18,905 nucleotides of DNA from NCBI GenBank assembly GCA_003135555.1, contig PLCF01000018.1, forward strand, positions 338 to 19,242. Reading direction: 5' to 3'. Positions 2,750 through 17,029 of the stretch are shown one piece after another. A model generated the notes under the pieces. It saw only the letters and a program-made list of their open reading frames with translations. It had not been told where the DNA came from and ran no database searches. Origin of the DNA: Vulcanimicrobiota bacterium (lineage in GTDB: Bacteria; Vulcanimicrobiota; Vulcanimicrobiia; Vulcanimicrobiales; Vulcanimicrobiaceae). The position numbers and the translations under genes are program-made. Numbering within the stretch: the stretch's first letter is position 1; each line of letters starts with the position of its first letter.

Positions 2750-2778
2750 AGTATAGCACCACCCCATTTGCCCGCCAA
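2750..2778 (-). promoter_or_regulatory. Sigma70-type promoter for yqzL-pheS-pheT
   Basis: Minus strand TTGGCG (2778-2773), 17-nt spacer, TATACT (2755-2750), with extended -10 TG (TGCTATACT). Confidence 0.75.
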
Positions 2779-5814: not shown

Positions 5815-6701
5815 GCATCGACGCATCGGCGTTGGTCGCCGCGCTCGATGCGACCGAGGACCACCTGCTCGGCGACGAGATGCGGTCCGTCGTGATCGAT
5901 CACGGCGCGCGCACCGCGCGCGTCACGGTGCTGCTGCACGGTCTCACCGCCAGCCCGCGCACCTGGCGGGAGTTCGCCCGCGTGCGGCATGCGCGCGGCG
6001 AGAACGTCCTGATCCCGCGGCTGCCGCGCCACGGCCACGCCGACCGCATGTCCGAAGCGCTGGTCGGGCTCACGGCCGCCGAGCTGACCGCGCACGGCGC
6101 ACGCGTCCTCGACGCCGCCGCCCAGCTCGGCGAGGAGATCGTGCTGGTCGGGCACTCGCTGGGCGCCGCGCTCGCCCTGCACCTCGCGCACCGCGACCCG
6201 CGCGTCTTTCGCGCCGTCGCCGTCGCGCCGTTCTTGGGGATCAAACGCCTGCCGCGCGACTGGAACGCGTGGGCGCGCGGGCTGTTGGAGAAGACCCCGA
6301 ACCGCTTCTTGTACTGGAATCCGATCGACAAGGGACGCGGGGTCCCGCAACACGGCTATCACCGCTACACCACGCGTTCGTTGGCCGCGTGCTTGGAGTT
6401 GGCCGAGCTGCTGCGCCGCGACGCCCGCACGGGTCCGCCGCAGGCGCGCCACATCGAGATCGTCCGCAACGCCAGCGAGTCGTCGGTGAACAATCACGCG
6501 ATCGACGATCTCGTCGCGCTCTGGCGCGCGGTCGGCGGCGCGAACGTCCGGCTGCACCGGCTCGTCGGGCTGCGCTCGTCGCACGACATCGTCGAGCCGG
6601 AGCGGCGTCAAGCGCCGGCGGCGCGTTTCCTGCCGCTGCTGCATGCGATCCTCGACGATCCGCCCCGCGAGCGCGACGCCGTCATCGACGCGCGCGAATG
6701 A
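5811..6701 (+). CDS. Alpha/beta fold hydrolase (esterase/lipase-like)
   Basis: LLHGLTASP oxyanion region, PRLPRHG, GHSLG nucleophile elbow, C-terminal His (SSHD). Confidence 0.88.
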   Translation: MSIDASALVAALDATEDHLLGDEMRSVVIDHGARTARVTVLLHGLTASPRTWREFARVRHARGENVLIPRLPRHGHADRMSEALVGLTAAELTAHGARVLDAAAQLGEEIVLVGHSLGAALALHLAHRDPRVFRAVAVAPFLGIKRLPRDWNAWARGLLEKTPNRFLYWNPIDKGRGVPQHGYHRYTTRSLAACLELAELLRRDARTGPPQARHIEIVRNASESSVNNHAIDDLVALWRAVGGANVRLHRLVGLRSSHDIVEPERRQAPAARFLPLLHAILDDPPRERDAVIDARE

Positions 6702-7608
6702 GTTCCGCCGCGATGCTCAGCGCTTGCGCGGTGGTCTCGGCCCAGTGGGCCAGCCCGCTCTCGTGCGTCCAGGTTTCGAACGTCGAGCTGATCTTGCCGT
6801 AACTGTTGTCCAGGACGACGTGGGGCACGCCCAGCGCGATCGCCAGAATGTGCGCGTGCAGCCGGTCGGTGACGACGACCTCGGCCGAAAGCACCAGCCG
6901 CGTCCCGCGCCGCAGCCACGCCTCGGCGCGTGGGCGGAACGGCGGCGCTACGGAGATCTCGTCGTCGAGTGGCGCGTCGAGCCAGTCGAGGACGGGCAGC
7001 TCGGCCGGCGGCGGCCCGCGGTCGACCGCTTCGCCGTCGCGGCGCCCGATCCACAGCAGCGGGCGTTCCGCTCGCGCCGCCTCGTGCAGCGGCCCCAGGC
7101 CGAAGGCCATGTCCGGGCACAGCAGCGCCGGCACGTCGAACCACCGCTGCGCGATCTCGAAGCTTTGCCGCTCGCGCACCAACAGCGTGAACGCCGGGTG
7201 TGCGGCGCACAGCCGGCGCATCCGGTCGCGCTTCTCGCGGTGCTCGAACCAGATGCTTTGCGGCAGCTGAATGATGCGCCGGTCGGTGCAGTGCTCCAGC
7301 ACGTACTCGCGCAAGCCTTGCTGGCCGCCGTAGAGGTCGCCGAAGCTGCCGCCGCCGTTGAGCAGCAGCGGACCGTCACCGATCGCCTCCCGCAGCGCGG
7401 TTTCGCTGAAGCTCGACGGGTCGCTGGCATACCCGACCGGAACGCGCAAGCGCTCCAAGACGGCGAGCGTGCCGAGCCAGATCGCGCTGTCGCCCGGATT
7501 GGAGTGGTTGGCGAAGTTGATCAACGCGACGGCGCGGCCCGGCTCAAGCAGTCCGCCCAGCGTTTCGTCGAGCCGCTCGGCCATCCGCGCGGCGAACGCG
7601 GTCGTCAC
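6682..7608 (-). CDS. Polysaccharide pyruvyltransferase (EpsO/Pvg1-like)
   Basis: HSNPGDSAIWLG, GGGSFGDLY, IIQLPQSI, VRERQS, CPDMAF, TDRLHAHIL, DNSYGKI. GTG 7608 overlaps the upstream TGA. Confidence 0.88.
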   Translation of the reverse strand: MTTAFAARMAERLDETLGGLLEPGRAVALINFANHSNPGDSAIWLGTLAVLERLRVPVGYASDPSSFSETALREAIGDGPLLLNGGGSFGDLYGGQQGLREYVLEHCTDRRIIQLPQSIWFEHREKRDRMRRLCAAHPAFTLLVRERQSFEIAQRWFDVPALLCPDMAFGLGPLHEAARAERPLLWIGRRDGEAVDRGPPPAELPVLDWLDAPLDDEISVAPPFRPRAEAWLRRGTRLVLSAEVVVTDRLHAHILAIALGVPHVVLDNSYGKISSTFETWTHESGLAHWAETTAQALSIAAELIRARR

Positions 7609-8594
7609 GGCCGGGCGGATCGGCTCGGGGCGTGTTCGCGCAGGCGCGACCCGGCTGCGGCGCCCGCCGGAAAGAGCGCGTCGATGCGCGCCAGCGTTTC
7701 GTCGTCGGGCCGCAGCGCGGCGGCGGCGGCATTCTCCTCGAGGTGGGCGACGCGCTCGCAGCCCGGCAGCGCAACCACGTCGTCGCCGCGCGCGAGCAGC
7801 CACGCCAGCGCCAGCTGGGCCGGCGACGCGCCGCTGCGCTGCGCGAGGGCGCGCAGCTTGGCGACCAGCGCGAGGTTGTGCTCGACGTTGCCCGGGTCGA
7901 AGCGCGGCACGCGGCGGCGCAGGTCGTCCGCGGCCAGAGCGCCGGTCGAGTGCACGGTGCCGGTGAGCAAGCCGCGGCCCAGCGGCGCGTAGGCGACCAA
8001 CGCGATGTTCAGCTCGCGGGCGGCGGCGAGCACTCCGTTCGTCTCGACGTCGCGCGTGAACAGCGAGTACTCGCTCTGCAGCGCCGCGATCGGGACGGCG
8101 GCGGCGGCACGCCGCAGCGTTGGTGCGTCCAGCTCCGAGACGCCGGCGTAGCGTACCTTGCCCGCCGCCACGAGCGCGGCCAACGCGCCGGCCGACTCCT
8201 CGATCGGCACGCCCGGATCGGCGCGGTGCAGATAGTACAGGTCGACGTGATCGAGACCGAGCCGTTGCAGCGAGGCCTCGCACGCCGCGCGGAGATACTC
8301 GGGCCGGCCGTTGCGGCCGCGATACGCCGGATCGGCGGCGCTGCGCACGATGCCGCCCTTGGTCGCCACGACCGCCGCCGCGCGCCGGCCGCGCAGGGCC
8401 CGGCCGACGAGCCGCTCGTTCTCGCCACGGCCGTACATGTCCGAGGTGTCGATGAGGGTGACGCCCAGCTCGAGCGCGCGGTGAATCGTCGCGATCGCTT
8501 CGCGTTCGGGGACGGCGTCGTAGAACTCGGACATCCCCATGCAGCCCAGCGCGATCGCGCCGACCTCGGGACCGTCCGCGCCGAGCCGCCGCAC
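7605..8594 (-). CDS. Aldo/keto reductase (AKR13-like)
   Basis: GCMGMSEFY, DTSDMYG, ATKGG, SLQRLGLDHVDLYYLHR, LQSEYSLFTR, YAPLGRGLLTG, QLALAWLL. GTG 8594 lies 2 nt after the aroQ stop. Confidence 0.93.
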   Translation of the reverse strand: MRRLGADGPEVGAIALGCMGMSEFYDAVPEREAIATIHRALELGVTLIDTSDMYGRGENERLVGRALRGRRAAAVVATKGGIVRSAADPAYRGRNGRPEYLRAACEASLQRLGLDHVDLYYLHRADPGVPIEESAGALAALVAAGKVRYAGVSELDAPTLRRAAAAVPIAALQSEYSLFTRDVETNGVLAAARELNIALVAYAPLGRGLLTGTVHSTGALAADDLRRRVPRFDPGNVEHNLALVAKLRALAQRSGASPAQLALAWLLARGDDVVALPGCERVAHLEENAAAAALRPDDETLARIDALFPAGAAAGSRLREHAPSRSARP

Positions 8595-8596
8595 GA

Positions 8597-9049
8597 TCAG
8601 CGGCGCTGCTTGCGCGCGGCGTGGTCGGCGGCCAACGCATCGAGCGCTTCGAGGTACGAGCCGATCCCGTGGCCGGTGAAGCGATGGACGCAGACGTCGC
8701 GCACGACCGAGATCTTGCGAAACGCGCCTTCGCGGTTGTCGACGTCGGAGAGGTGCACTTCGGCGGCCGGCAACGCGACGGCGAGCAGGGCGTCGCGGAT
8801 CGCGTACGAGTAGTGCGTGAACGCCGCCGGGTTGATCACGATCGCGTCGGCCCACTTGCGGCTGCGGTGCAGCTCGTCGACGATCGCGCCTTCGTGGTTG
8901 GACTGGAAAAACCGCACGCGCTGGCGCAGTTTGCGCGCCCGCGCGCGAACCTCGCGCTCGAGATCGCGCAGCGTCTTGCGCCCGTAGATCTCCGGCTCGC
9001 GCTCGCCCAGCAGGTTGAGGTTGGGCCCGTTGATGACCAGAATGTTCAT
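8597..9049 (-). CDS. aroQ: Type II 3-dehydroquinate dehydratase
   Basis: NGPNLNLLGEREPEIYG, FQSNHEG, INPAAFTHYSYAIRDA, EVHLS; ATGA overlap with the upstream gene. Confidence 0.96.
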   Translation of the reverse strand: MNILVINGPNLNLLGEREPEIYGRKTLRDLEREVRARARKLRQRVRFFQSNHEGAIVDELHRSRKWADAIVINPAAFTHYSYAIRDALLAVALPAAEVHLSDVDNREGAFRKISVVRDVCVHRFTGHGIGSYLEALDALAADHAARKQRR

Positions 9050-10623
9050 GAGTATCCGATCGCGGCCAGCGCGGCGCGTACGTCTTCGGCACGCACCCCG
9101 TCGTGGAGCCGCGCGCTGCCGATCGCGTCGAGCAGCACGTACTGCGTCCCGCCCGCGTGGCGCTTCTTGTCGCGGCGCGTCGCCTCGACGATCGCAGCGG
9201 GGTCGAGCGCGCGCCATGCCGGCGGGACCGGTAGCGCGGCGAGGTGCGCGTCGGCGTCGGCACGCACGCCGTCGTCGAGGCTGCCGCAGGCGACCGAGAG
9301 CGCCAGCGCGGCGCGCATCCCGACGATCACCGCCTCGCCGTGGCGCAGCGTGCCGTAGCCCGCGACCTTCTCGATCGCGTGGCCGACGGTGTGACCGAAG
9401 TTGAGGACCGCGCGGGTACCGGTGCGATCGTCCTCGTCGCGCGCGACGATCTCGGCTTTGAGCTCGACGCAGCGCGCGATCGCGTCGAGCGCCGTCGCGG
9501 GATCGTCGAGTAGCGCCGTCTCGCCGGCGCGCAGCGTGCGGTAGAGTTGGGCGTCGAGCGCCAAACCGCACTTGAGCATCTCGCCGTAACCGGAGACGAC
9601 GTCGCGGCGCGGCAGCGTGCGCAGCGCCTGCGGCGCGATCGCGACGTGGGCCGGCTGGGTAACCGTCCCGACGAGGTTCTTGCCGCTGGGCAAGTTGATC
9701 GCCGTCTTGCCGCCGATGGCGGCATCGACCGCCGCGAGCAGCGTCGTCGGGACGGCAACGTAGGGAACGCCGCGCTGATAGGTCGCCGCCGCGAAGCCGA
9801 CGACGTCGCCGATCGTACCGCCGCCCACGCCGACGATCACCCCATGGCGGTCGAGTCCGGCGTCGACGAAGCGGTCGTAGAGCGCGCCCAGCGCCGCCAG
9901 CGACTTGAGCGACTCGTCGGCGTCGACGCACAGCAGCGTAGCCTCGACGTGCGCGGCGGCGTAGCCGTGCCTGACGCGCTCGCCGAGCTCTTCGACGCTA
10001 CGGTCGGCGACGATCACGACCCGCCCGCCGGGGAGCGGCGTGATGCGCGCGGGGAGATCGTCGAGCACGTACGGTCCGATCGTGACCTCGTACGGCCGCC
10101 CGGCGGCGACGCGCACGACCCGTTCGCCGCCCAGCGCGAGATCGATCGCGCGCGCGACCTCGGGCGGCGCCACGTCGTCGACCGCGACGCGCACCGCCGC
10201 GCTGAGGTAGCGCGGCCGGCGGGCCGCGTGCAACCGCGCCAGCGCGTCGGGGTCGCGCAGCAGTGGACGGGTACCGGCGGCGTGCGCGGCGCGCCGGGCG
10301 CACGTCGCCAAGCCGGCGTCGAGAAAGACCAGCGTGCCGCTCGACGCGACGCTGCGGCGGTTGGCGGCGTCTTCGAGCGCGCCCGCGCCCAAGGCCACGA
10401 TCGCGCCGCCGCGTGCGGCCAGCGCGCCGATCGCCTCGCGCTCGCGCTCGCGGAACGCCGGCTCGCCCTCGTCCTCGACGTAGCGCGCGATCGAGCGGCC
10501 GGTCTGGTTTTCGATGAGCGTGTCGACGTCGATCGCTTCGAGCCCGCGCAGCGCCGCGAGCAGCGGCGCGACGGTGGACTTGCCGGCGCCCGGCGGCCCG
10601 CACAGGTAGACGTTAGCGGGCAC
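9046..10623 (-). CDS. aroB: Bifunctional shikimate kinase / 3-dehydroquinate synthase (AroK-AroB fusion), 525 aa
   Basis: N-terminal P-loop GPPGAGKST, GEPAFRERE, RPLL. C-terminal GGGTIGDVVGF, PTTLLAAVDAAIGGKT, LNFGHTVGHAIE, HGEAV, DKK. Confidence 0.94.
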   Translation of the reverse strand: MPANVYLCGPPGAGKSTVAPLLAALRGLEAIDVDTLIENQTGRSIARYVEDEGEPAFREREREAIGALAARGGAIVALGAGALEDAANRRSVASSGTLVFLDAGLATCARRAAHAAGTRPLLRDPDALARLHAARRPRYLSAAVRVAVDDVAPPEVARAIDLALGGERVVRVAAGRPYEVTIGPYVLDDLPARITPLPGGRVVIVADRSVEELGERVRHGYAAAHVEATLLCVDADESLKSLAALGALYDRFVDAGLDRHGVIVGVGGGTIGDVVGFAAATYQRGVPYVAVPTTLLAAVDAAIGGKTAINLPSGKNLVGTVTQPAHVAIAPQALRTLPRRDVVSGYGEMLKCGLALDAQLYRTLRAGETALLDDPATALDAIARCVELKAEIVARDEDDRTGTRAVLNFGHTVGHAIEKVAGYGTLRHGEAVIVGMRAALALSVACGSLDDGVRADADAHLAALPVPPAWRALDPAAIVEATRRDKKRHAGGTQYVLLDAIGSARLHDGVRAEDVRAALAAIGYS

Positions 10624-11776
10624 GAACCGTCCGCTCCCAAGCCGCGACGCGTTCGCGCAGCTCGTCCATCGAGTCGCCGCCGAACTTGTCGAGCACGGCG
10701 TCGGCCAACGCCAGCGCGAGCAGCGACTCGCCGATGACCGCGGCCGCCGGCACCGCGCACGTATCGCTGCGCTCGATGTGCGCGCGCGTCGCTTCGCCGG
10801 TGCGCAGATCGACGGAGTCCAAGGGTCGCATCAGCGTCGCGATCGGCTTCATCGCCGCGCGCACGACGATCGGCTGCCCGGTCGACATCCCGCCTTCGAT
10901 CCCGCCGGCGCGGTTGCTGCGATAGCGCGTGCGCACACCGTCACCGGGCTCGTACTCGTCGTGCGCTTGGGAACCCAACCGCGCCGCGGCGCCGAAGCCC
11001 AAGCCGATCTCGACGCCCTTGATCGCGTTGAGCGCCATGAAGGTGCGCCCCACCTCGCCTTCGAGCCGGCGGTCCCATTGCGCGTACGACCCCAGCGCGA
11101 CGGGGACGCCGCGCGCGACGACCTCGAACACGCCGCCGACCGAATCGCCGGCTTCCTTGGCGGCTTCGATCTCGCGCACCATCGCTGCGGCCGCGGCCGC
11201 ATCGAGCGCGCGCACGGGGGAAGCGTCGATCTCTTCGGGCGGCACGTCCCGCCACGGCGTGTCGTCGACCGCGCCGCCGATGCGCACCACCCGGCTCGCG
11301 ATGGTGATCCCCAGTTCGGCGAGCAGGGCGCGCGCCACCGTGCCCAGCGCGACGCGCATCGCCGTCTCGCGCGCGCTGGCGCGTTCGAGCACGTCGCGCA
11401 GGTCGTCGCGGGCGTACTTGATCCCGCCGATGCGGTCGGCATGGCCGGGTCGCGGCACGTGGACTTGGCGCGCCGCCGGCTCGCCGCCGGCGGGCGGATC
11501 GACCCGCATGATCTCGGCCCAGCGCACGTGGTCCTTGTTCTCCAGGATCAGTGCGATGGGGCTGCCGATGGTGATGCCGCGCCGCACGCCGCCCACGATG
11601 CGAATCTCGTCGGTCTCGATCGCCTGACGATTGCCGCGACCGAAGCCGAGCTTGCGGCGGCGCGCCTGGGCCAGCAGCATCTCGGCGTCGAGCGCGAGCC
11701 CGCTGGGGATCCCCTCCATGATGCCGATCAAAGCCGGCCCGTGCGACTCACCCGCGGTCAGGAAGCGCAAGTTCAT
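10613..11776 (-). CDS. aroC: Chorismate synthase
   Basis: MNLRFLTAGESHGP, PRPGHAD, ERASARETA, SNRAGGIEGGMS, MKPIATL, ERSDTC; ATGA overlap with aroE. Confidence 0.97.
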   Translation of the reverse strand: MNLRFLTAGESHGPALIGIMEGIPSGLALDAEMLLAQARRRKLGFGRGNRQAIETDEIRIVGGVRRGITIGSPIALILENKDHVRWAEIMRVDPPAGGEPAARQVHVPRPGHADRIGGIKYARDDLRDVLERASARETAMRVALGTVARALLAELGITIASRVVRIGGAVDDTPWRDVPPEEIDASPVRALDAAAAAAMVREIEAAKEAGDSVGGVFEVVARGVPVALGSYAQWDRRLEGEVGRTFMALNAIKGVEIGLGFGAAARLGSQAHDEYEPGDGVRTRYRSNRAGGIEGGMSTGQPIVVRAAMKPIATLMRPLDSVDLRTGEATRAHIERSDTCAVPAAAVIGESLLALALADAVLDKFGGDSMDELRERVAAWERTVRAR

Positions 11777-12558
11777 GCGATCGTCTCCAGTCGCGGTGCA
11801 AACCCGAACCAGCGCTCGAACGTCGCCGCGGCTTGCGCGACGAACATCGCCGTCCCCGGGACGGTGCGCATCCCGCGTGCCCGCGCTTCGATCAGAAACG
11901 GCGTGTCCTCGGGGACGTAGACGAGATCGAAGGCGGTCGAGCCCGGCTGCGCGTCGCGCGGCAGCAGCGAGCCTGCAGCGTGGCCTTGCATGCCGACGGG
12001 CGTGGCGTTGACGTAGAGATCCGCTGCAGGCACCGCGTCGAGGCTGCACGCGGCGGCGCCGAAGTCGGCGGCGACGGCGCGGGCCCGTGCGAGGTCGCGC
12101 GCCGCGATCGTGAGCGCGGCTGCACCGCCGCGCCGCGCCGCCTGGGCGACCGCGCGCGCCGCGCCGCCCGCGCCGAGCACCGCGACGCGCGCACCGCGCA
12201 GCGCGACGTCGTATTGCGCGAGCGCAGCCTCGATCCCCGCGACGTCGGTGTTGTCGGCGACCAAGGTCTGCCCGACGCGGGTGAGGACGTTCGCGGCACC
12301 GCAGGCACGCGCCGCACTCTCGATCCGGTCGGCCAGCTCGAGCGCGCGTTCCTTGTGCGGCAGCGTGACGTTGCAACCGACGAACTCCGGCGTCGCGCGC
12401 CAGCGCGCGAGCGTCGCGGCGAGGTCGGCGGGCGCTACGTCGACGGCGTCGTACAGCAGCGCGATCCCGGACGCAGCCGCGAAGCGTGCGAACAGCGCCG
12501 GCGACCGGCTGTGGGCGACCGGGTGCCCGATCACGGCCGCGCGGCGCGGCGCGCTCAT
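11773..12558 (-). CDS. aroE: Shikimate dehydrogenase
   Basis: GHPVAHSRSP, GCNVTLPHK, NTD, GAGGAARA, NATPVGM, DLVY, MFVAQA. Confidence 0.95.
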   Translation of the reverse strand: MSAPRRAAVIGHPVAHSRSPALFARFAAASGIALLYDAVDVAPADLAATLARWRATPEFVGCNVTLPHKERALELADRIESAARACGAANVLTRVGQTLVADNTDVAGIEAALAQYDVALRGARVAVLGAGGAARAVAQAARRGGAAALTIAARDLARARAVAADFGAAACSLDAVPAADLYVNATPVGMQGHAAGSLLPRDAQPGSTAFDLVYVPEDTPFLIEARARGMRTVPGTAMFVAQAAATFERWFGFAPRLETIA

Positions 12559-13808
12559 CGCACGCCGTCCAGCGCGCGCGCGAACCCCGGAAACGATACG
12601 GCCATGCAGTCGGGGTCGTCCAGCCGCACGTCGATCCCTGCAGCATGACCGGCGACCGCGAAGGCCATCGCGATGCGATGATCGCCGGCGGTGACGACGG
12701 CGCCGTCGTGCAGCGTGGCCGGCCCGCGCACGGCAAAGCCGTCGGGCGCGGTCTCGACCTCGATGCCCAGCGCGCGCGCCGCGTGCGCGAACGTGTCGAT
12801 CCGGTCGGACTCTTTCACGCGCAGCTCGGCGGCGCCCGAGACGCTCGTCCGGCCGTGCGCGAAGGCGCCCAAAACGCCGACCAGCGGCAGCTCGTCGATC
12901 AAGCCGGGGACCTCGCCGGGAGCGATGACCACCGCGCTCAACCGTGCACCGCGCACGCTCACGCGCCCGTGCGGCTCGGGGCCGGTGCTCGTCTGCGATA
13001 CCTCGACGTCCGCGCCGAAGCGCCGCAACACGTCCAGAAACGCCGTGCGGGTGGGGTTGAGCCCGACGTCGTCGAGCGTCGCGTGCGCGCCCGGGACCGC
13101 CGCGGCCGCCGCGAGCAGAAACGCCGCACTCGACAGGTCGCCCGGGACGTGCAACTGCGTCGCCTGCGGCGTTTGCGGACCCTCGACGACGAGTGCGTCG
13201 CCGTCGTGCCGGCAGCGCACGCCGAAGGCTTCGAAGAGCCGCTCGGTGTGGTCGCGCGTCGCGAGCTGCCCGGTCAGCCGCGTCGGGCCGTGCGCGCCTA
13301 GGGCCGCGAACAAGACCGCCGACTTCACCTGTGCGCTGGGGACCTCGATTGCGACCGCTGCACCGCGCGCTGCGGCGTTGCCGTGCACGACCAGCGGGGC
13401 CGTCCCGGCCGGCGACAGCTCGATGCGCGCGCCGAAGGCGGCCAGCGGTGCGGCGACGCGCCGCATCGGACGCGCGCGCAGCGACGCATCGCCGTCGAGC
13501 GTGGCGACGATCGCCCGCGTCGCGAGCAGTCCGGTCAACAACCGGATCGTCGTCCCGCTGTTGCCGCAGTCGATCGGCTCGGGCGGCGCGATCAGCGTGC
13601 CGGCGCCGCCGCTGACCACCAGCACGTCACCCTCGCGGCGCATCGTCACCCCGAGCGCGCCGAGCGCGCGTTGCGTCGAGCGCACGTCGAGTCCGGCGGG
13701 GAGGTTGAACAGCCGCGACTCCCCCTGCGCCAGCGCAGCCAGCATCAGCGCGCGGTGCGCGATCGACTTGTCGCCGGGAACGGTCATCGGTGGAATGGTC
13801 GCCGTCAT
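12555..13808 (-). CDS. aroA: 3-phosphoshikimate 1-carboxyvinyltransferase (EPSP synthase)
   Basis: PGDKSIAHRA, DCGNSGTTIRL, RPMRR, SAQVKS, RDHTE, NPTR, IDELP, KESDRI, DHRIAM. Confidence 0.97.
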   Translation of the reverse strand: MTATIPPMTVPGDKSIAHRALMLAALAQGESRLFNLPAGLDVRSTQRALGALGVTMRREGDVLVVSGGAGTLIAPPEPIDCGNSGTTIRLLTGLLATRAIVATLDGDASLRARPMRRVAAPLAAFGARIELSPAGTAPLVVHGNAAARGAAVAIEVPSAQVKSAVLFAALGAHGPTRLTGQLATRDHTERLFEAFGVRCRHDGDALVVEGPQTPQATQLHVPGDLSSAAFLLAAAAAVPGAHATLDDVGLNPTRTAFLDVLRRFGADVEVSQTSTGPEPHGRVSVRGARLSAVVIAPGEVPGLIDELPLVGVLGAFAHGRTSVSGAAELRVKESDRIDTFAHAARALGIEVETAPDGFAVRGPATLHDGAVVTAGDHRIAMAFAVAGHAAGIDVRLDDPDCMAVSFPGFARALDGVR

Positions 13809-13823
13809 CGTCCTTGCTGGTCC

Positions 13824-13864
13824 GGAAAAGAGAGCGGGCCCCTCGCCTTCGGCGAGGGGCCCGC
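13824..13864 (-). terminator. Intrinsic terminator of the aro operon leader (attenuator)
   Basis: Perfect 14-bp stem GCGGGCCCCTCGCC-GAA-GGCGAGGGGCCCGC (13864-13834) followed on the minus strand by TCTCTTTT. It lies upstream of aroA in the same orientation. Confidence 0.88.
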
Positions 13865-13914
13865 GCAGTGGAGTGGGTGGTGGATGCTGCTACTGCGCGA
13901 CGCCGAACTCGACC
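13851..13914 (-). promoter_or_regulatory. Predicted antiterminator helix, mutually exclusive with the terminator
   Basis: Minus-strand GGTCGAGTTCGGCGTCGCGCAGT (13914-13892) pairs with ACTGCGCGGGCCCCTCGCC (13869-13851): perfect 8-bp core CGCGCAGT/ACTGCGCG plus U-G, GGC/GCC and CGAG/CTCG. This sequesters the terminator 5' arm. Confidence 0.7.
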
Positions 13915-13967
13915 GACACGAATTTCGTGGATCCGTACGAATAGCGATACGCAGCGCGATGCGACAT
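13890..13967 (-). CDS. Putative Tyr/Phe-rich leader peptide of the aro operon, 25 aa (MSHRAAYRYSYGSTKFVSVEFGVAQ)
   Basis: ATG 13967 to TAG 13890; Tyr codons at 7, 9, 11 (TAT, TAT, TAC) and Phe at 16 and 21; ends 25 nt before the terminator stem. Confidence 0.75.
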   Translation of the reverse strand: MSHRAAYRYSYGSTKFVSVEFGVAQ

Positions 13968-13975
13968 GTCCGCTG

Positions 13976-14005
13976 AGTAAAGCCTAGCGGTGCGGCTCTT
14001 GTCAA
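13976..14005 (-). promoter_or_regulatory. Putative promoter of the aro leader
   Basis: Perfect TTGACA (14005-14000), 18-nt spacer, imperfect -10 TTTACT (13981-13976), 8 nt before the leader ATG. Confidence 0.5.
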
Positions 14006-15328: not shown

Positions 15329-15345
15329 CATCCGGCACCCGTTTG

Positions 15346-15354
15346 TGCTACGCT
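15346..15354 (+). promoter_or_regulatory. Possible extended -10 (TGCTACGCT) for the two-gene pair
   Basis: TGn-TACGCT in the intergenic gap, 45 nt before ATG 15400. Confidence 0.35.
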
Positions 15355-15399
15355 TGGTCGACTTCACGAGCCGAGCACGAGCGGGAAAGCGTGGGGCGG

Positions 15400-16521
15400 A
15401 TGATCGCCATCGAAGCCATCAAGTTCAACCACGATACGGGCTCCGCGTCGCACGACGCGCTGAACCTGCGCAGGAACGCGACGAACTTCGTCACCGTCCC
15501 CGAGTGGCGGCGCTTCATCTGCGTCAATCCGGAGGACTCGCCTGCGGCGTACGCGGTCGCACCGACGCACGGCAAGACGATAACGATCCAGGCGTCGTTC
15601 AGCTCCACGGATTTGGCGCTCGGCCAGGCCGAGATCCGCGCCGAGCATCGTGTGAAGCCGCAGCTGGTTCCGTTCGTGAGCGGCAGCAGCGGCTACGTGA
15701 CGCTGGAGCTGATCGACCCGCCGGTGCACGAGCGCCGCGTCGGTTTGTACGACCAGACGTGGGAGTGGGAGTACCGCATTCCGCCCCACCACGAGTGGAA
15801 GCAGTTCGGGATCACGCGCCACCGGTTCTACGTCGTCCTCGACGTGCCGACGGCACCCTGGCAGCAGGCGCCGTACACCGCCGCCAACACGCAACTGCTC
15901 TGGAGCGACGTGCTCGACTACGCGTGCCGCTGGGCCGCCGGTGCGACGACAAAGGATGCGGCCGCGGGGCGCGTGACGCACAGCGTGAACGCGCTGGGTC
16001 CCGCGGTGATGACGTACGACTGTCCGGGCGGCGGCGGCTCGAACTACAGCGGTGGACCGTTCGAGTGCAGCGCCTTCCTACAGCTGCTGCACGGCGGAGT
16101 CGGTAACGGGATCTACGTCAACTGCAGCGACTGCGCGACAATCACCTCGACGTTCGCCGACGCGCTCGGCTGCGATCTCTGGCAGTCGCAGATGGGCTAC
16201 GGCTTCGATCTCAACGAGATGATCGCGATCGGCGCGGCGACGTTCCAGCTTGCGTGCGGATTCTGGACCAGCTTCAGCTATCACGAGGTCGCGTGGGAGG
16301 GCGCGTGCACGCAGGCCGAAGACGTGTTCGACGCGTGCCTGAAAGTCAACGGCGGGCCGAATCCGATCGGCGCACCGTGGGTACCACTGCTGCCGGTTGA
16401 TGCGCGCTTCGGAACCACCGGCTCCGGAGAGTACCGCGACCGGCTGGCGACACCCGCCCCGACCGGGCGCCCGAAGTGCAACCCGCAGCCCGGAACGCGC
16501 CAGCGGCGCGCGCTCGTCTAG
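15400..16521 (+). CDS. Hypothetical protein with a putative transglutaminase/papain-like Cys-His-Asp core, 373 aa
   Basis: Likely ATG 15400. VNCSDCATITSTFADALG, FSYHEVAW and VFDAC give Cys242, His295 and Asp311. No signal peptide. The fold assignment is inference. Confidence 0.75.
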   Translation: MIAIEAIKFNHDTGSASHDALNLRRNATNFVTVPEWRRFICVNPEDSPAAYAVAPTHGKTITIQASFSSTDLALGQAEIRAEHRVKPQLVPFVSGSSGYVTLELIDPPVHERRVGLYDQTWEWEYRIPPHHEWKQFGITRHRFYVVLDVPTAPWQQAPYTAANTQLLWSDVLDYACRWAAGATTKDAAAGRVTHSVNALGPAVMTYDCPGGGGSNYSGGPFECSAFLQLLHGGVGNGIYVNCSDCATITSTFADALGCDLWQSQMGYGFDLNEMIAIGAATFQLACGFWTSFSYHEVAWEGACTQAEDVFDACLKVNGGPNPIGAPWVPLLPVDARFGTTGSGEYRDRLATPAPTGRPKCNPQPGTRQRRALV

Positions 16522-16534
16522 GAGAAGGTATCTC

Positions 16535-17029
16535 ATGCAGGCAGAGCACCGGAGATTCCTCGAGCAGCGCTACGACGTGGAGAGCTGGTTCGGACACAGC
16601 GAAAGCGGGGGCAATGTCAAAGCGTTCGCGTTTACGGGCTTGGAGCTTGGCGGCTGGTCGCTCGTACGCACCGAGCTCCGCGTTGCCGATCACGCTGCGG
16701 TCCACTCGATGTGGCGGCACGACGAGGCCGCTGACGCGTTGCTCGCGATCGACGTCTTCGAGTGCGCGTCCGTGCCGGCCGCACACGACCGCCTCCTCGA
16801 GATCCTCGCGACCATGCAGTCGAACGAGCTCGAGCTCCGTGTCGGCCCGGCGCCCGGCGACATCGCGTTCGGCCTGCGCGATACGATGCTGCTGTTCGCG
16901 CGCGCAAACGTCGTCGTGCACGTGCGAAACGCGGGCCGCGTCGTGGTCGACGTCGACCCGGTCGCCCGCGCGCTCGACGCGCGCCTGCGCGAGCTCGCGG
17001 CTGAGGTCGACCCGGAAGCGAAGGCGTAA
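16535..17029 (+). CDS. Hypothetical protein, 164 aa, coupled to the upstream gene
   Basis: ATG 16535 with AGGAGAAGG RBS overlapping the upstream stop; begins MQAEHRRFLEQRYDVESWFG; no family recognised. Confidence 0.75.
   Translation: MQAEHRRFLEQRYDVESWFGHSESGGNVKAFAFTGLELGGWSLVRTELRVADHAAVHSMWRHDEAADALLAIDVFECASVPAAHDRLLEILATMQSNELELRVGPAPGDIAFGLRDTMLLFARANVVVHVRNAGRVVVDVDPVARALDARLRELAAEVDPEAKA

Follow-up and report, generated by a model that had tools for sequence, protein, structure and literature searches.

The aroA gene of the window, by which we mean the whole 18,905-nt stretch of Vulcanimicrobiota (Eremiobacterota) DNA analysed here, is preceded by a leader that we take with high confidence to be a ribosome-mediated transcription attenuator sensing the supply of aromatic aminoacyl-tRNA. 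The element is real, conserved in relatives and, judging from its sequence, very probably functional; as an attenuator it would make the six shikimate-pathway steps that follow DAHP depend on how well the aromatic tRNAs are charged. A first-pass annotation had proposed a Tyr/Phe-sensing attenuator at this position. The attenuator reading is now supported by conservation, covariation and constrained folding, and also by sister leaders in front of hom, ilvC, ilvE, metY and ssuA, which carry codons for the cognate residues.

Read along the minus strand from position 14005 to 13808, the leader comprises a -35 element TTGACA (14000-14005), an 18-nt spacer, a non-canonical -10 element TTTACT (13976-13981), 8 nt, an ORF of 25 codons closed by TAG (13890-13967), a 25-nt linker, an intrinsic terminator hairpin (13834-13864), a U-rich tail TCTCTTTT (13826-13833), a Shine-Dalgarno-like AAGGA (13811-13815) and the ATG of aroA. 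The first-pass annotation had reported the TTGACA, the ORF with three Tyr codons (two of them TAT), two Phe and no Trp, and a perfect 14-bp terminator, and all of these were found again. The gene order it had assigned to the operon was likewise borne out by NCBIfam matches, all on the minus strand: aroA, EPSP synthase (12555-13808; TIGR01356, 371 bits against a cut-off of 287); aroE, shikimate dehydrogenase (11773-12558; TIGR00507, 201 bits, cut-off 200); aroC, chorismate synthase (10613-11776; TIGR00033, 370 bits, cut-off 212); an aroK-aroB fusion, shikimate kinase plus dehydroquinate synthase (9046-10623; TIGR01357, 312 bits, cut-off 305), in which residues 4-160 are matched by NCBIfam shikimate kinase models with scores under the respective cut-offs; and aroQ, type II dehydroquinase (8597-9049; PRK05395 models above cut-off). 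These genes overlap by 4 to 11 nt. An aldo/keto reductase gene and a polysaccharide pyruvyl transferase-like gene lie 3′ of aroQ on the same strand (6682-8600), each with a 4-nt overlap, and would share the attenuated transcript.

A covariance model of 19 copies gave scores of 109-162 bits in 25 of the 44 genomes of the genus (19 of these matches by construction, as the model was built from them), the next tier of matches starting at 51 bits. In a class-wide draw of 151 genomes, scores above 100 bits were seen in this genus only. Twenty-four of the 25 copies lie before aroA, and one (G067) lies before a pheA-aroF fusion that is followed by aroA. Counted by locus among relatives that are not independent samples, the element was present at 18 of the 28 aroA loci of the genus, a 19th was broken by a contig end and found on another contig, and the remaining nine had no leader, which is therefore dispensable. 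Two of these nine keep apparent remnants, half a terminator in G022 and a -35 element with a terminator arm in G014. The AroA proteins of element carriers are 64-78% identical and the gene upstream differs between genomes; identities of 73-77% were found in named genomes that carry the labels Vulcanimicrobiota, Eremiobacteraeota or Ca. Elarobacter, which places the window in that phylum. Resolution at the base of the AroA tree is poor, and G032, G048 and G059 were counted in denominators only. Alignment of the aroA upstream regions, a check put forward in the first-pass annotation, showed that an aromatic-rich ORF is conserved in the relatives and that the terminator has undergone compensatory changes. 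At a threshold of 80% likeness, three metatranscriptome contig sets from the same study yielded a single 35-nt piece of aroE, with the leader uncovered, which counts neither way.

The leader ORF of the window encodes MSHRAAYRYSYGSTKFVSVEFGVAQ, with Tyr7 (TAT), Tyr9 (TAT) and Tyr11 (TAC) at 13935-13949, followed by Phe16 and Phe21. Taken alone, three aromatic codons within codons 2-14 are not rare (P = 0.067, base shuffle), so the case rests on conservation in relatives, where a cluster of Phe, Trp and Tyr codons takes the same place. Across the 24 leaders that lie before aroA, 116 of the 312 codons at positions 2-14 specify Tyr (71), Phe (24) or Trp (21), a share of 37% as against 7.1% in the long ORFs of the genome; such enrichment in codons for the end products of the pathway is a feature of classical attenuators. 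Tyr occurs in 24/24 of these leaders, Trp in 21/24, Phe in 20/24 and all three residues in 19/24. The window copy is one of only three without Trp, and the 'no Trp' of the first-pass annotation is an exception of this copy, since 21 of the 24 leaders have it. Its remark on a preference for TAT extends to the relatives (31 of 71 sensor Tyr codons, genome 19%), and the Phe codons of the sensor region are TTT in 16 of 24 cases (genome 12%) while those of the 3′ half, the pairing strand, are TTC in 19 of 21. It is thus very probable, from codon content, that the aroA leaders of the genus sense Tyr, Trp and Phe in most copies.

The ORF has 24-26 codons and stops at the same place in all 25 copies (TAG 18, TAA 5, TGA 2), its net frame being maintained through compensating indels. 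In seven copies a gain of two bases is followed later by a gain of one, such that the 3′ half is read in another frame and the stop is kept; this favours a role as RNA with the stop at a set position and speaks against a functional peptide. On this pattern, the 3′ half of the ORF is conserved as RNA and not as peptide. The same observations bear on the idea that the RNA switch is thrown not by uncharged tRNA but by a nascent peptide that binds a free metabolite (an aromatic amino acid or chorismate) or a drug in the ribosome tunnel. Stalling of a nascent peptide in the tunnel is known from TnaC and ermC-type leaders, and a Tyr-Arg pair and a Gly-x-Thr stretch do recur here, with Arg making up 50 of the 312 codons at positions 2-14. 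However, the aromatic residues keep to no fixed order or spacing, the copies fall into two reading frames over the C-terminal half, the Thr falls within an invariant CACG hairpin, and the sister leaders swap in residues made by their own downstream genes, so that we regard an arrest peptide as very unlikely.

The -35 element is TTGACA in 23 of the 25 copies and TTGACG in the other two, and the spacer varies freely. A -10 pattern T-n-n-A-(C/A)-T lies in register, 8 nt 5′ of the ATG, in 24/25 copies, and a TG extension at the -10 is found in 23/25 and is absent from the window copy. The promoter scan did not call the leader promoter because TTTACT is without the consensus A. The sole consensus promoter that it called in the window (2750-2778, minus strand) stands before a short ORF and pheS, where a Phe-rich leader is not evident. 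TAGGCT was considered as the -10 element of the aroA leader and rejected, as its spacer would be 13 nt and it is not conserved. No GGAG, AGGA or GAGG precedes the leader ATG in any of the 25 copies, and no Shine-Dalgarno motif was seen in any. The fixed gap between -10 and ATG and the absence of a Shine-Dalgarno motif point to a transcript of the leaderless type, which from the promoter geometry probably starts near 13969, about 2 nt before the leader AUG. Two ribosomal protein genes of the window genome (G000:C14:77+ and C66:111544+), which by their sequence features are presumably rpmA and rplU, have the same short gap between -10 and ATG, and this suggests that leaderless mRNAs may be common in this genome.

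The terminator between the leader ORF and the first gene, itself a classical attenuator feature, has 14 pairs, 13 of them G-C, a loop of 3 nt and an energy of -33.9 kcal/mol; the other six of the seven terminator-like matches in the window have only 5-6 pairs. In the alignment 98.8% of its cells are paired and 5 of 13 pairs show two-sided change, a covariation score reached by 0 of 500 shuffles. The whole leader folds with a z of -3.76 (0/200 shuffles as good). The first-pass annotation had described an alternative helix with an extendable 8-bp core between codons ~18-26 and the terminator's 5′ arm. Such a helix exists and exceeds the stated length: 23 pairs (-30.9 kcal/mol) join leader codons 18-25, the stop codon and a few nucleotides beyond (13887-13916) to a strand at 13849-13873 that takes in the whole 5′ arm. 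As a duplex the window antiterminator has an energy of -33.6 as against a shuffled mean of -21.9, with none of 200 shuffles as good. Across 19 copies 90% of its cells are paired, compared with 31-51% for slid registers, and its covariation is thin (two-sided change at 3 of 19 pairs, a score equalled by 14 of 500 shuffles). Like the antiterminator of a classical attenuator it excludes the terminator, and against shuffled strands it is significant in 13 of the 25 copies (p ≤ 0.01), reaches about 0.03 in two and is no better in ten, which include five of the shifted-frame copies and three that have lost the U-tail.

Within the ORF a small CACG/CGTG hairpin of 4-6 bp (13917-13929, codons 13-17) has four pairs that are invariant in all 19 aligned copies and flanking pairs with 5 and 3 two-sided changes; it is a candidate pause or protector hairpin and may act as a pause signal. 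A long conserved 1:2 protector helix was unsupported, being no better than shuffles (median z -0.7).

Equilibrium folding of the full-length RNA gave the terminator in at least 13 of the 19 copies, that is, in all among those listed, and the antiterminator in none of those listed. The choice between the two must therefore be kinetic, as is accepted for attenuators, and only nascent-length folds were used to follow it. Dominance of the terminator at equilibrium would also suit a stand-alone gene for a small protein or small RNA with its own terminator, aroA being served by fixed read-through or by a promoter of its own, and the strong promoter-ORF-terminator unit fits such a gene. Against it, the gap between the tail and the aroA ATG is only 17 nt, the C-terminal sequence of the peptide is unconserved while its complementarity to the terminator arm is conserved, and the element is found only before aromatic-pathway genes; we consider this reading highly improbable. 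The many invariant nucleotides of the 3′ half could in turn point to a ligand- or protein-sensing RNA (a riboswitch, a T-box or a TRAP-like system) in which the ORF is incidental. The invariant bases are, however, the paired ones, selection acts on the ORF and on its aromatic codons, and no Rfam family, including the Trp, Phe, His, Leu and Thr leaders, matched at its gathering score (best E 0.38, an unrelated sRNA). Searches of five genomes returned no T-box (RF00230; control search positive in 5/14) and no TRAP (MtrB, PF02081; control positive in Bacillus subtilis), and a sensing RNA of this kind has, in our estimate, a negligible chance of being correct. Both a stand-alone gene and a riboswitch-type RNA are disfavoured because neither explains the codon enrichment together with the complementarity.

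The first-pass annotation had suggested folding the leader with and without ribosome masking. We folded nascent RNA ending before the 3′ arm of the terminator, with 9 or 13 nt masked past the A-site codon as an assumed ribosome cover. When the ribosome stood at the final aromatic codon within positions 2-14, more than half of the terminator arm was sequestered in 24/25 copies (9-nt cover) or 25/25 (13-nt cover), and the arm was freed once the ribosome passed codons 14-21, just after the aromatic cluster, in 25/25. The loss of antiterminator pairing with a ribosome at the stop codon is built into the masking, and the model is informative in that the switch point comes just after the end of the aromatic cluster; under this folding model and its assumed cover, the sensor codons precede the switch point in all 25 copies, again as in classical attenuators. 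When no ribosome was placed on the nascent RNA, the antiterminator was still dominant in 13 of the 25 copies, that of the window among them. In the window copy, a ribosome at Tyr7, Tyr9 or Tyr11 left the arm sequestered at 0.9, Phe16 lay at the boundary and Phe21 past it. Phe21 was rejected as a sensor, since it lies inside the antiterminator strand beyond the switch point; Phe16 is doubtful, being on the switch boundary and matched by a Phe in only 5 of the 25 copies. Probably, then, neither is a sensor, and by this model the window copy would effectively sense Tyr only. The scheme of the first-pass annotation, in which stalling frees the antiterminator strand and a ribosome at the stop masks it, is supported by conservation, covariation and constrained folding, except that Phe16 is doubtful as a stall site; as to the signal, its Tyr stands, its Phe codons are poor sensors in this copy, and it had missed Trp.

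The following sequence of events is proposed for the attenuator. RNA polymerase would start about 2 nt before the leader AUG, and a ribosome would load without a Shine-Dalgarno sequence, as the promoter geometry suggests. If charging of tRNA-Tyr falls short (for most relatives, that of tRNA-Trp and tRNA-Phe too), the ribosome would, by analogy with known attenuators, stall within codons 5-14. Codons 18-25 would then be free and, by the computed pairing, would bind the whole emerging 5′ arm of the terminator, such that transcription enters aroA. With good supply, the ribosome would move beyond codons 15-17 and cover this strand, the 14-bp hairpin would form and transcription would presumably end near 13826.

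The switch might instead work chiefly at the level of aroA translation, or via Rho or mRNA decay, with a hairpin that is not a working intrinsic terminator. The U-tails of many copies are interrupted (GTTCGTTT type), several being weak, and 3 of the 25 have lost the tail and have the hairpin within the opening codons of aroA. In the window, however, the Shine-Dalgarno sequence of aroA is 18 nt past the terminator stem and outside it, and 5-7 T in 9 nt are kept in 21 of the 25 copies, so we consider it very unlikely that this is the general output. In the three exceptional genomes (G007, G029 and G021; loci L122, L131 and L132) the U-tail has been deleted together with the usual start of aroA, which now begins upstream of the terminator hairpin, and the new start is inside a small hairpin. 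These may represent a conversion from transcriptional to translational control; a translational or Rho-dependent output is likely there and possible where tails are weak.

The window genome holds further leaders of the same build, with Thr/Ile/Met codons before hom, Ile/Leu/Val before ilvC and ilvE, Met/Cys before metY and Cys/Met before ssuA. Each has 24-26 codons and the promoter geometry of the aroA leader; in the order hom, ilvC, metY, ssuA and ilvE they are found at G000:C74:3693+ (L155), C74:19758- (L154), C74:78+ (L268:78-149), C74:19927+ (L269) and C36 (L267:5270-5347, minus strand), so that four of the five share one 35-kb contig. The weaker covariance-model matches proved to be other leaders of this build. 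Among 173 terminator-like hairpins of the window genome, the core of the aroA terminator occurs in five, each of which belongs to such a leader, by a pattern that was drawn from these same leaders; when a profile of the aroA 3′ module was built on sequence only, the ssuA, ilvC and hom leaders ranked first (E 0.002-0.014). The ilvE terminator is without the shared core. Outside the window genome, a gene of about 595 aa fusing prephenate dehydratase, ACT and DAHP synthase parts (pheA-aroF; L228-L257, L198-L208) is preceded by a Trp/Tyr/Phe leader at 28 of the 30 genus loci examined, out of 43 genomes with the gene. At 30 DAHP synthase loci from 29 other genera an aromatic leader was found at 13, including 9/9 full fusions. 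Two queries found no DAHP synthase in the window genome, which is 84% complete.

These likenesses raise the tentative idea, to which we give slightly less than an even chance, that one ancestral leaderless attenuator cassette was copied before many amino-acid operons of the Vulcanimicrobiaceae with its sensor codons swapped (aromatic, Ile/Leu/Val, Thr/Ile, Met, Cys), and in one genome ahead of a tRNA-Cys gene; the leaders of aroA and pheA-aroF would then be three-way Tyr/Trp/Phe sensors. Convergence on a G+C-rich hairpin is a possible alternative. No Trp-codon leader was found before trpE in five of five genomes; in all five trpE follows a gene that by its sequence features is presumably rplQ (L258-L262), and three have a long imperfect inverted repeat in the gap. 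Since trpE has no leader, and TrpR (control positive), TRAP and T-boxes were not found in those five genomes, transcriptional feedback from Trp supply may be confined to the aroA and pheA-aroF leaders.

Neshat et al. reportedly studied the aroR leader peptide of Corynebacterium glutamicum in 2014. As described, aroR precedes aroF, which encodes DAHP synthase, contains Phe-Tyr-Phe and answered to Phe and not to Tyr (PMC11802643; first noted in PMC4046766). It resembles the present leader in being a short ORF with Phe/Tyr codons that acts by ribosome stalling on a gene of the common aromatic pathway (PMC11802643), and is set apart by its description, in that it precedes the first enzyme and the leader of the window precedes aroA-aroE-aroC-aroKB-aroQ; besides, the aroA leaders have Trp in 21/24 and a conserved terminator/antiterminator pair, as against Phe-Tyr-Phe only. 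The Acholeplasma uORFC-13-1 is likewise a predicted uORF by an intrinsic terminator before a shikimate-pathway gene (aroF), but comes with a ribosome-binding site and one or more Phe codons, lies ahead of DAHP synthase and belongs to another phylum (PMC8632094). Unlike both, which lie directly before DAHP synthase, 24 of the 25 copies stand before aroA and one before pheA-aroF-aroA; a sister leader precedes pheA-aroF.

Attenuators before EPSP synthase operons in Firmicutes are T-boxes or protein-dependent leaders. Putative attenuators, predicted as terminator/antiterminator pairs before common-pathway clusters that contain EPSP synthase, have been listed for Bacillus, Enterococcus, Streptococcus, Desulfovibrio and others, and the accessible part of that source names no leader peptide (PMC1173090, Table 7). 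The trpL, pheL and pheM leaders of E. coli share with the aroA leader an ORF of cognate codons, mutually exclusive antiterminator and terminator and the masking of the antiterminator by a ribosome at the stop (PMC11802643, in part), and the closest geometry is that of the M. tuberculosis ilvB1 uORF, whose layout was described with RNA end mapping (PMC13236596, in part). As far as these descriptions reach, all four belong to branch or synthetase operons and respond to a single amino acid or to the branched-chain group, whereas the aroA leader combines three aromatic residues and has its antiterminator strand inside the ORF. The mycobacterial polycysteine 'ribulon' is similar in having leaderless sensor ORFs at several loci of one genome and, according to the available text, differs in unmasking a ribosome-binding site and in sensing Cys only (bioRxiv 10.1101/834739). 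In our case the predicted output is an intrinsic terminator and the set spans aromatic, branched-chain, Thr/Ile, Met and Cys genes; masking of a ribosome-binding site is not indicated in the window and is possible in the three-genome variant only.

Within the literature covered, subscription journals and supplements lying largely outside it, we found no leader peptide before an aroA-first operon, no leader with three aromatic residues and nothing on this phylum; the accessible parts of PMC4833913, PMC2965389, PMC1262725 and PMC2659441 name no aroA leader peptide. The first-pass annotation knew of no described leader-peptide attenuator for such an operon; this holds for the aroA-first operon, but leader-peptide control of the common pathway at DAHP synthase had been described (PMC11802643, PMC4046766, PMC8632094). 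New are the operon under control, the sensing of three aromatic residues by one leader and the existence of a family of sister cassettes; ribosome-mediated attenuation itself is known. If our reading is correct, attenuation by leader peptides, described for branch and DAHP-synthase operons, also reaches the core aroA-aroE-aroC-aroKB-aroQ block, a compact natural sensor reads three aromatic amino acids within eight codons, and an abundant, barely cultured lineage of soil and peat regulates amino-acid synthesis by ribosome-read RNA switches and not by TrpR, TRAP or T-boxes. The sister set, with its gains, losses, a Tyr-only copy and a terminator that slid into the coding region, opens to testing the long-standing question of whether attenuators originate anew each time or are spread as modules that can be re-programmed, and the 145-nt unit is a candidate aromatic amino-acid biosensor.

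Beyond the genus, a short ORF with at least three aromatic codons was seen at 5 of 28 readable aroA loci, and only that of G127 also has the promoter geometry and a terminator. Here (L168, in this one genome) a Phe-rich leader of unrelated sequence, with a promoter and a U-tailed terminator, lies 170 nt before aroA and is possibly of independent origin. A clade with no leader (L003, L004 and L006) has a conserved CACAAC-N17-GTGTTG between a carbonic-anhydrase-like gene and aroA, which resembles an alternative-sigma promoter. Elsewhere in the window, a 392-aa Cys- and Trp-rich ORF with no NCBIfam match (15343-16521, plus strand) is followed by a 210-aa ORF (16397-17029, plus strand), and the pair looks like an inserted two-gene module. 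More leaders with the same terminator core were observed in genus g13 (L157-L160, L164, L165), G162 (L156), G139 (L163) and G005 (L147), Met-rich before hom, Met/Cys before cystathionine gamma-synthase and cysH, and Cys before an ABC transporter locus. In G127 a Cys-rich leader ORF and terminator (L162:1430-1644, minus strand) directly precede a tRNA-Cys gene identified by ARAGORN, an apparent attenuation of this gene or of an operon headed by it. Short leaders also stand before other DAHP synthase genes in G125 (L223) and G110 (L224), one of them with three consecutive Trp codons.
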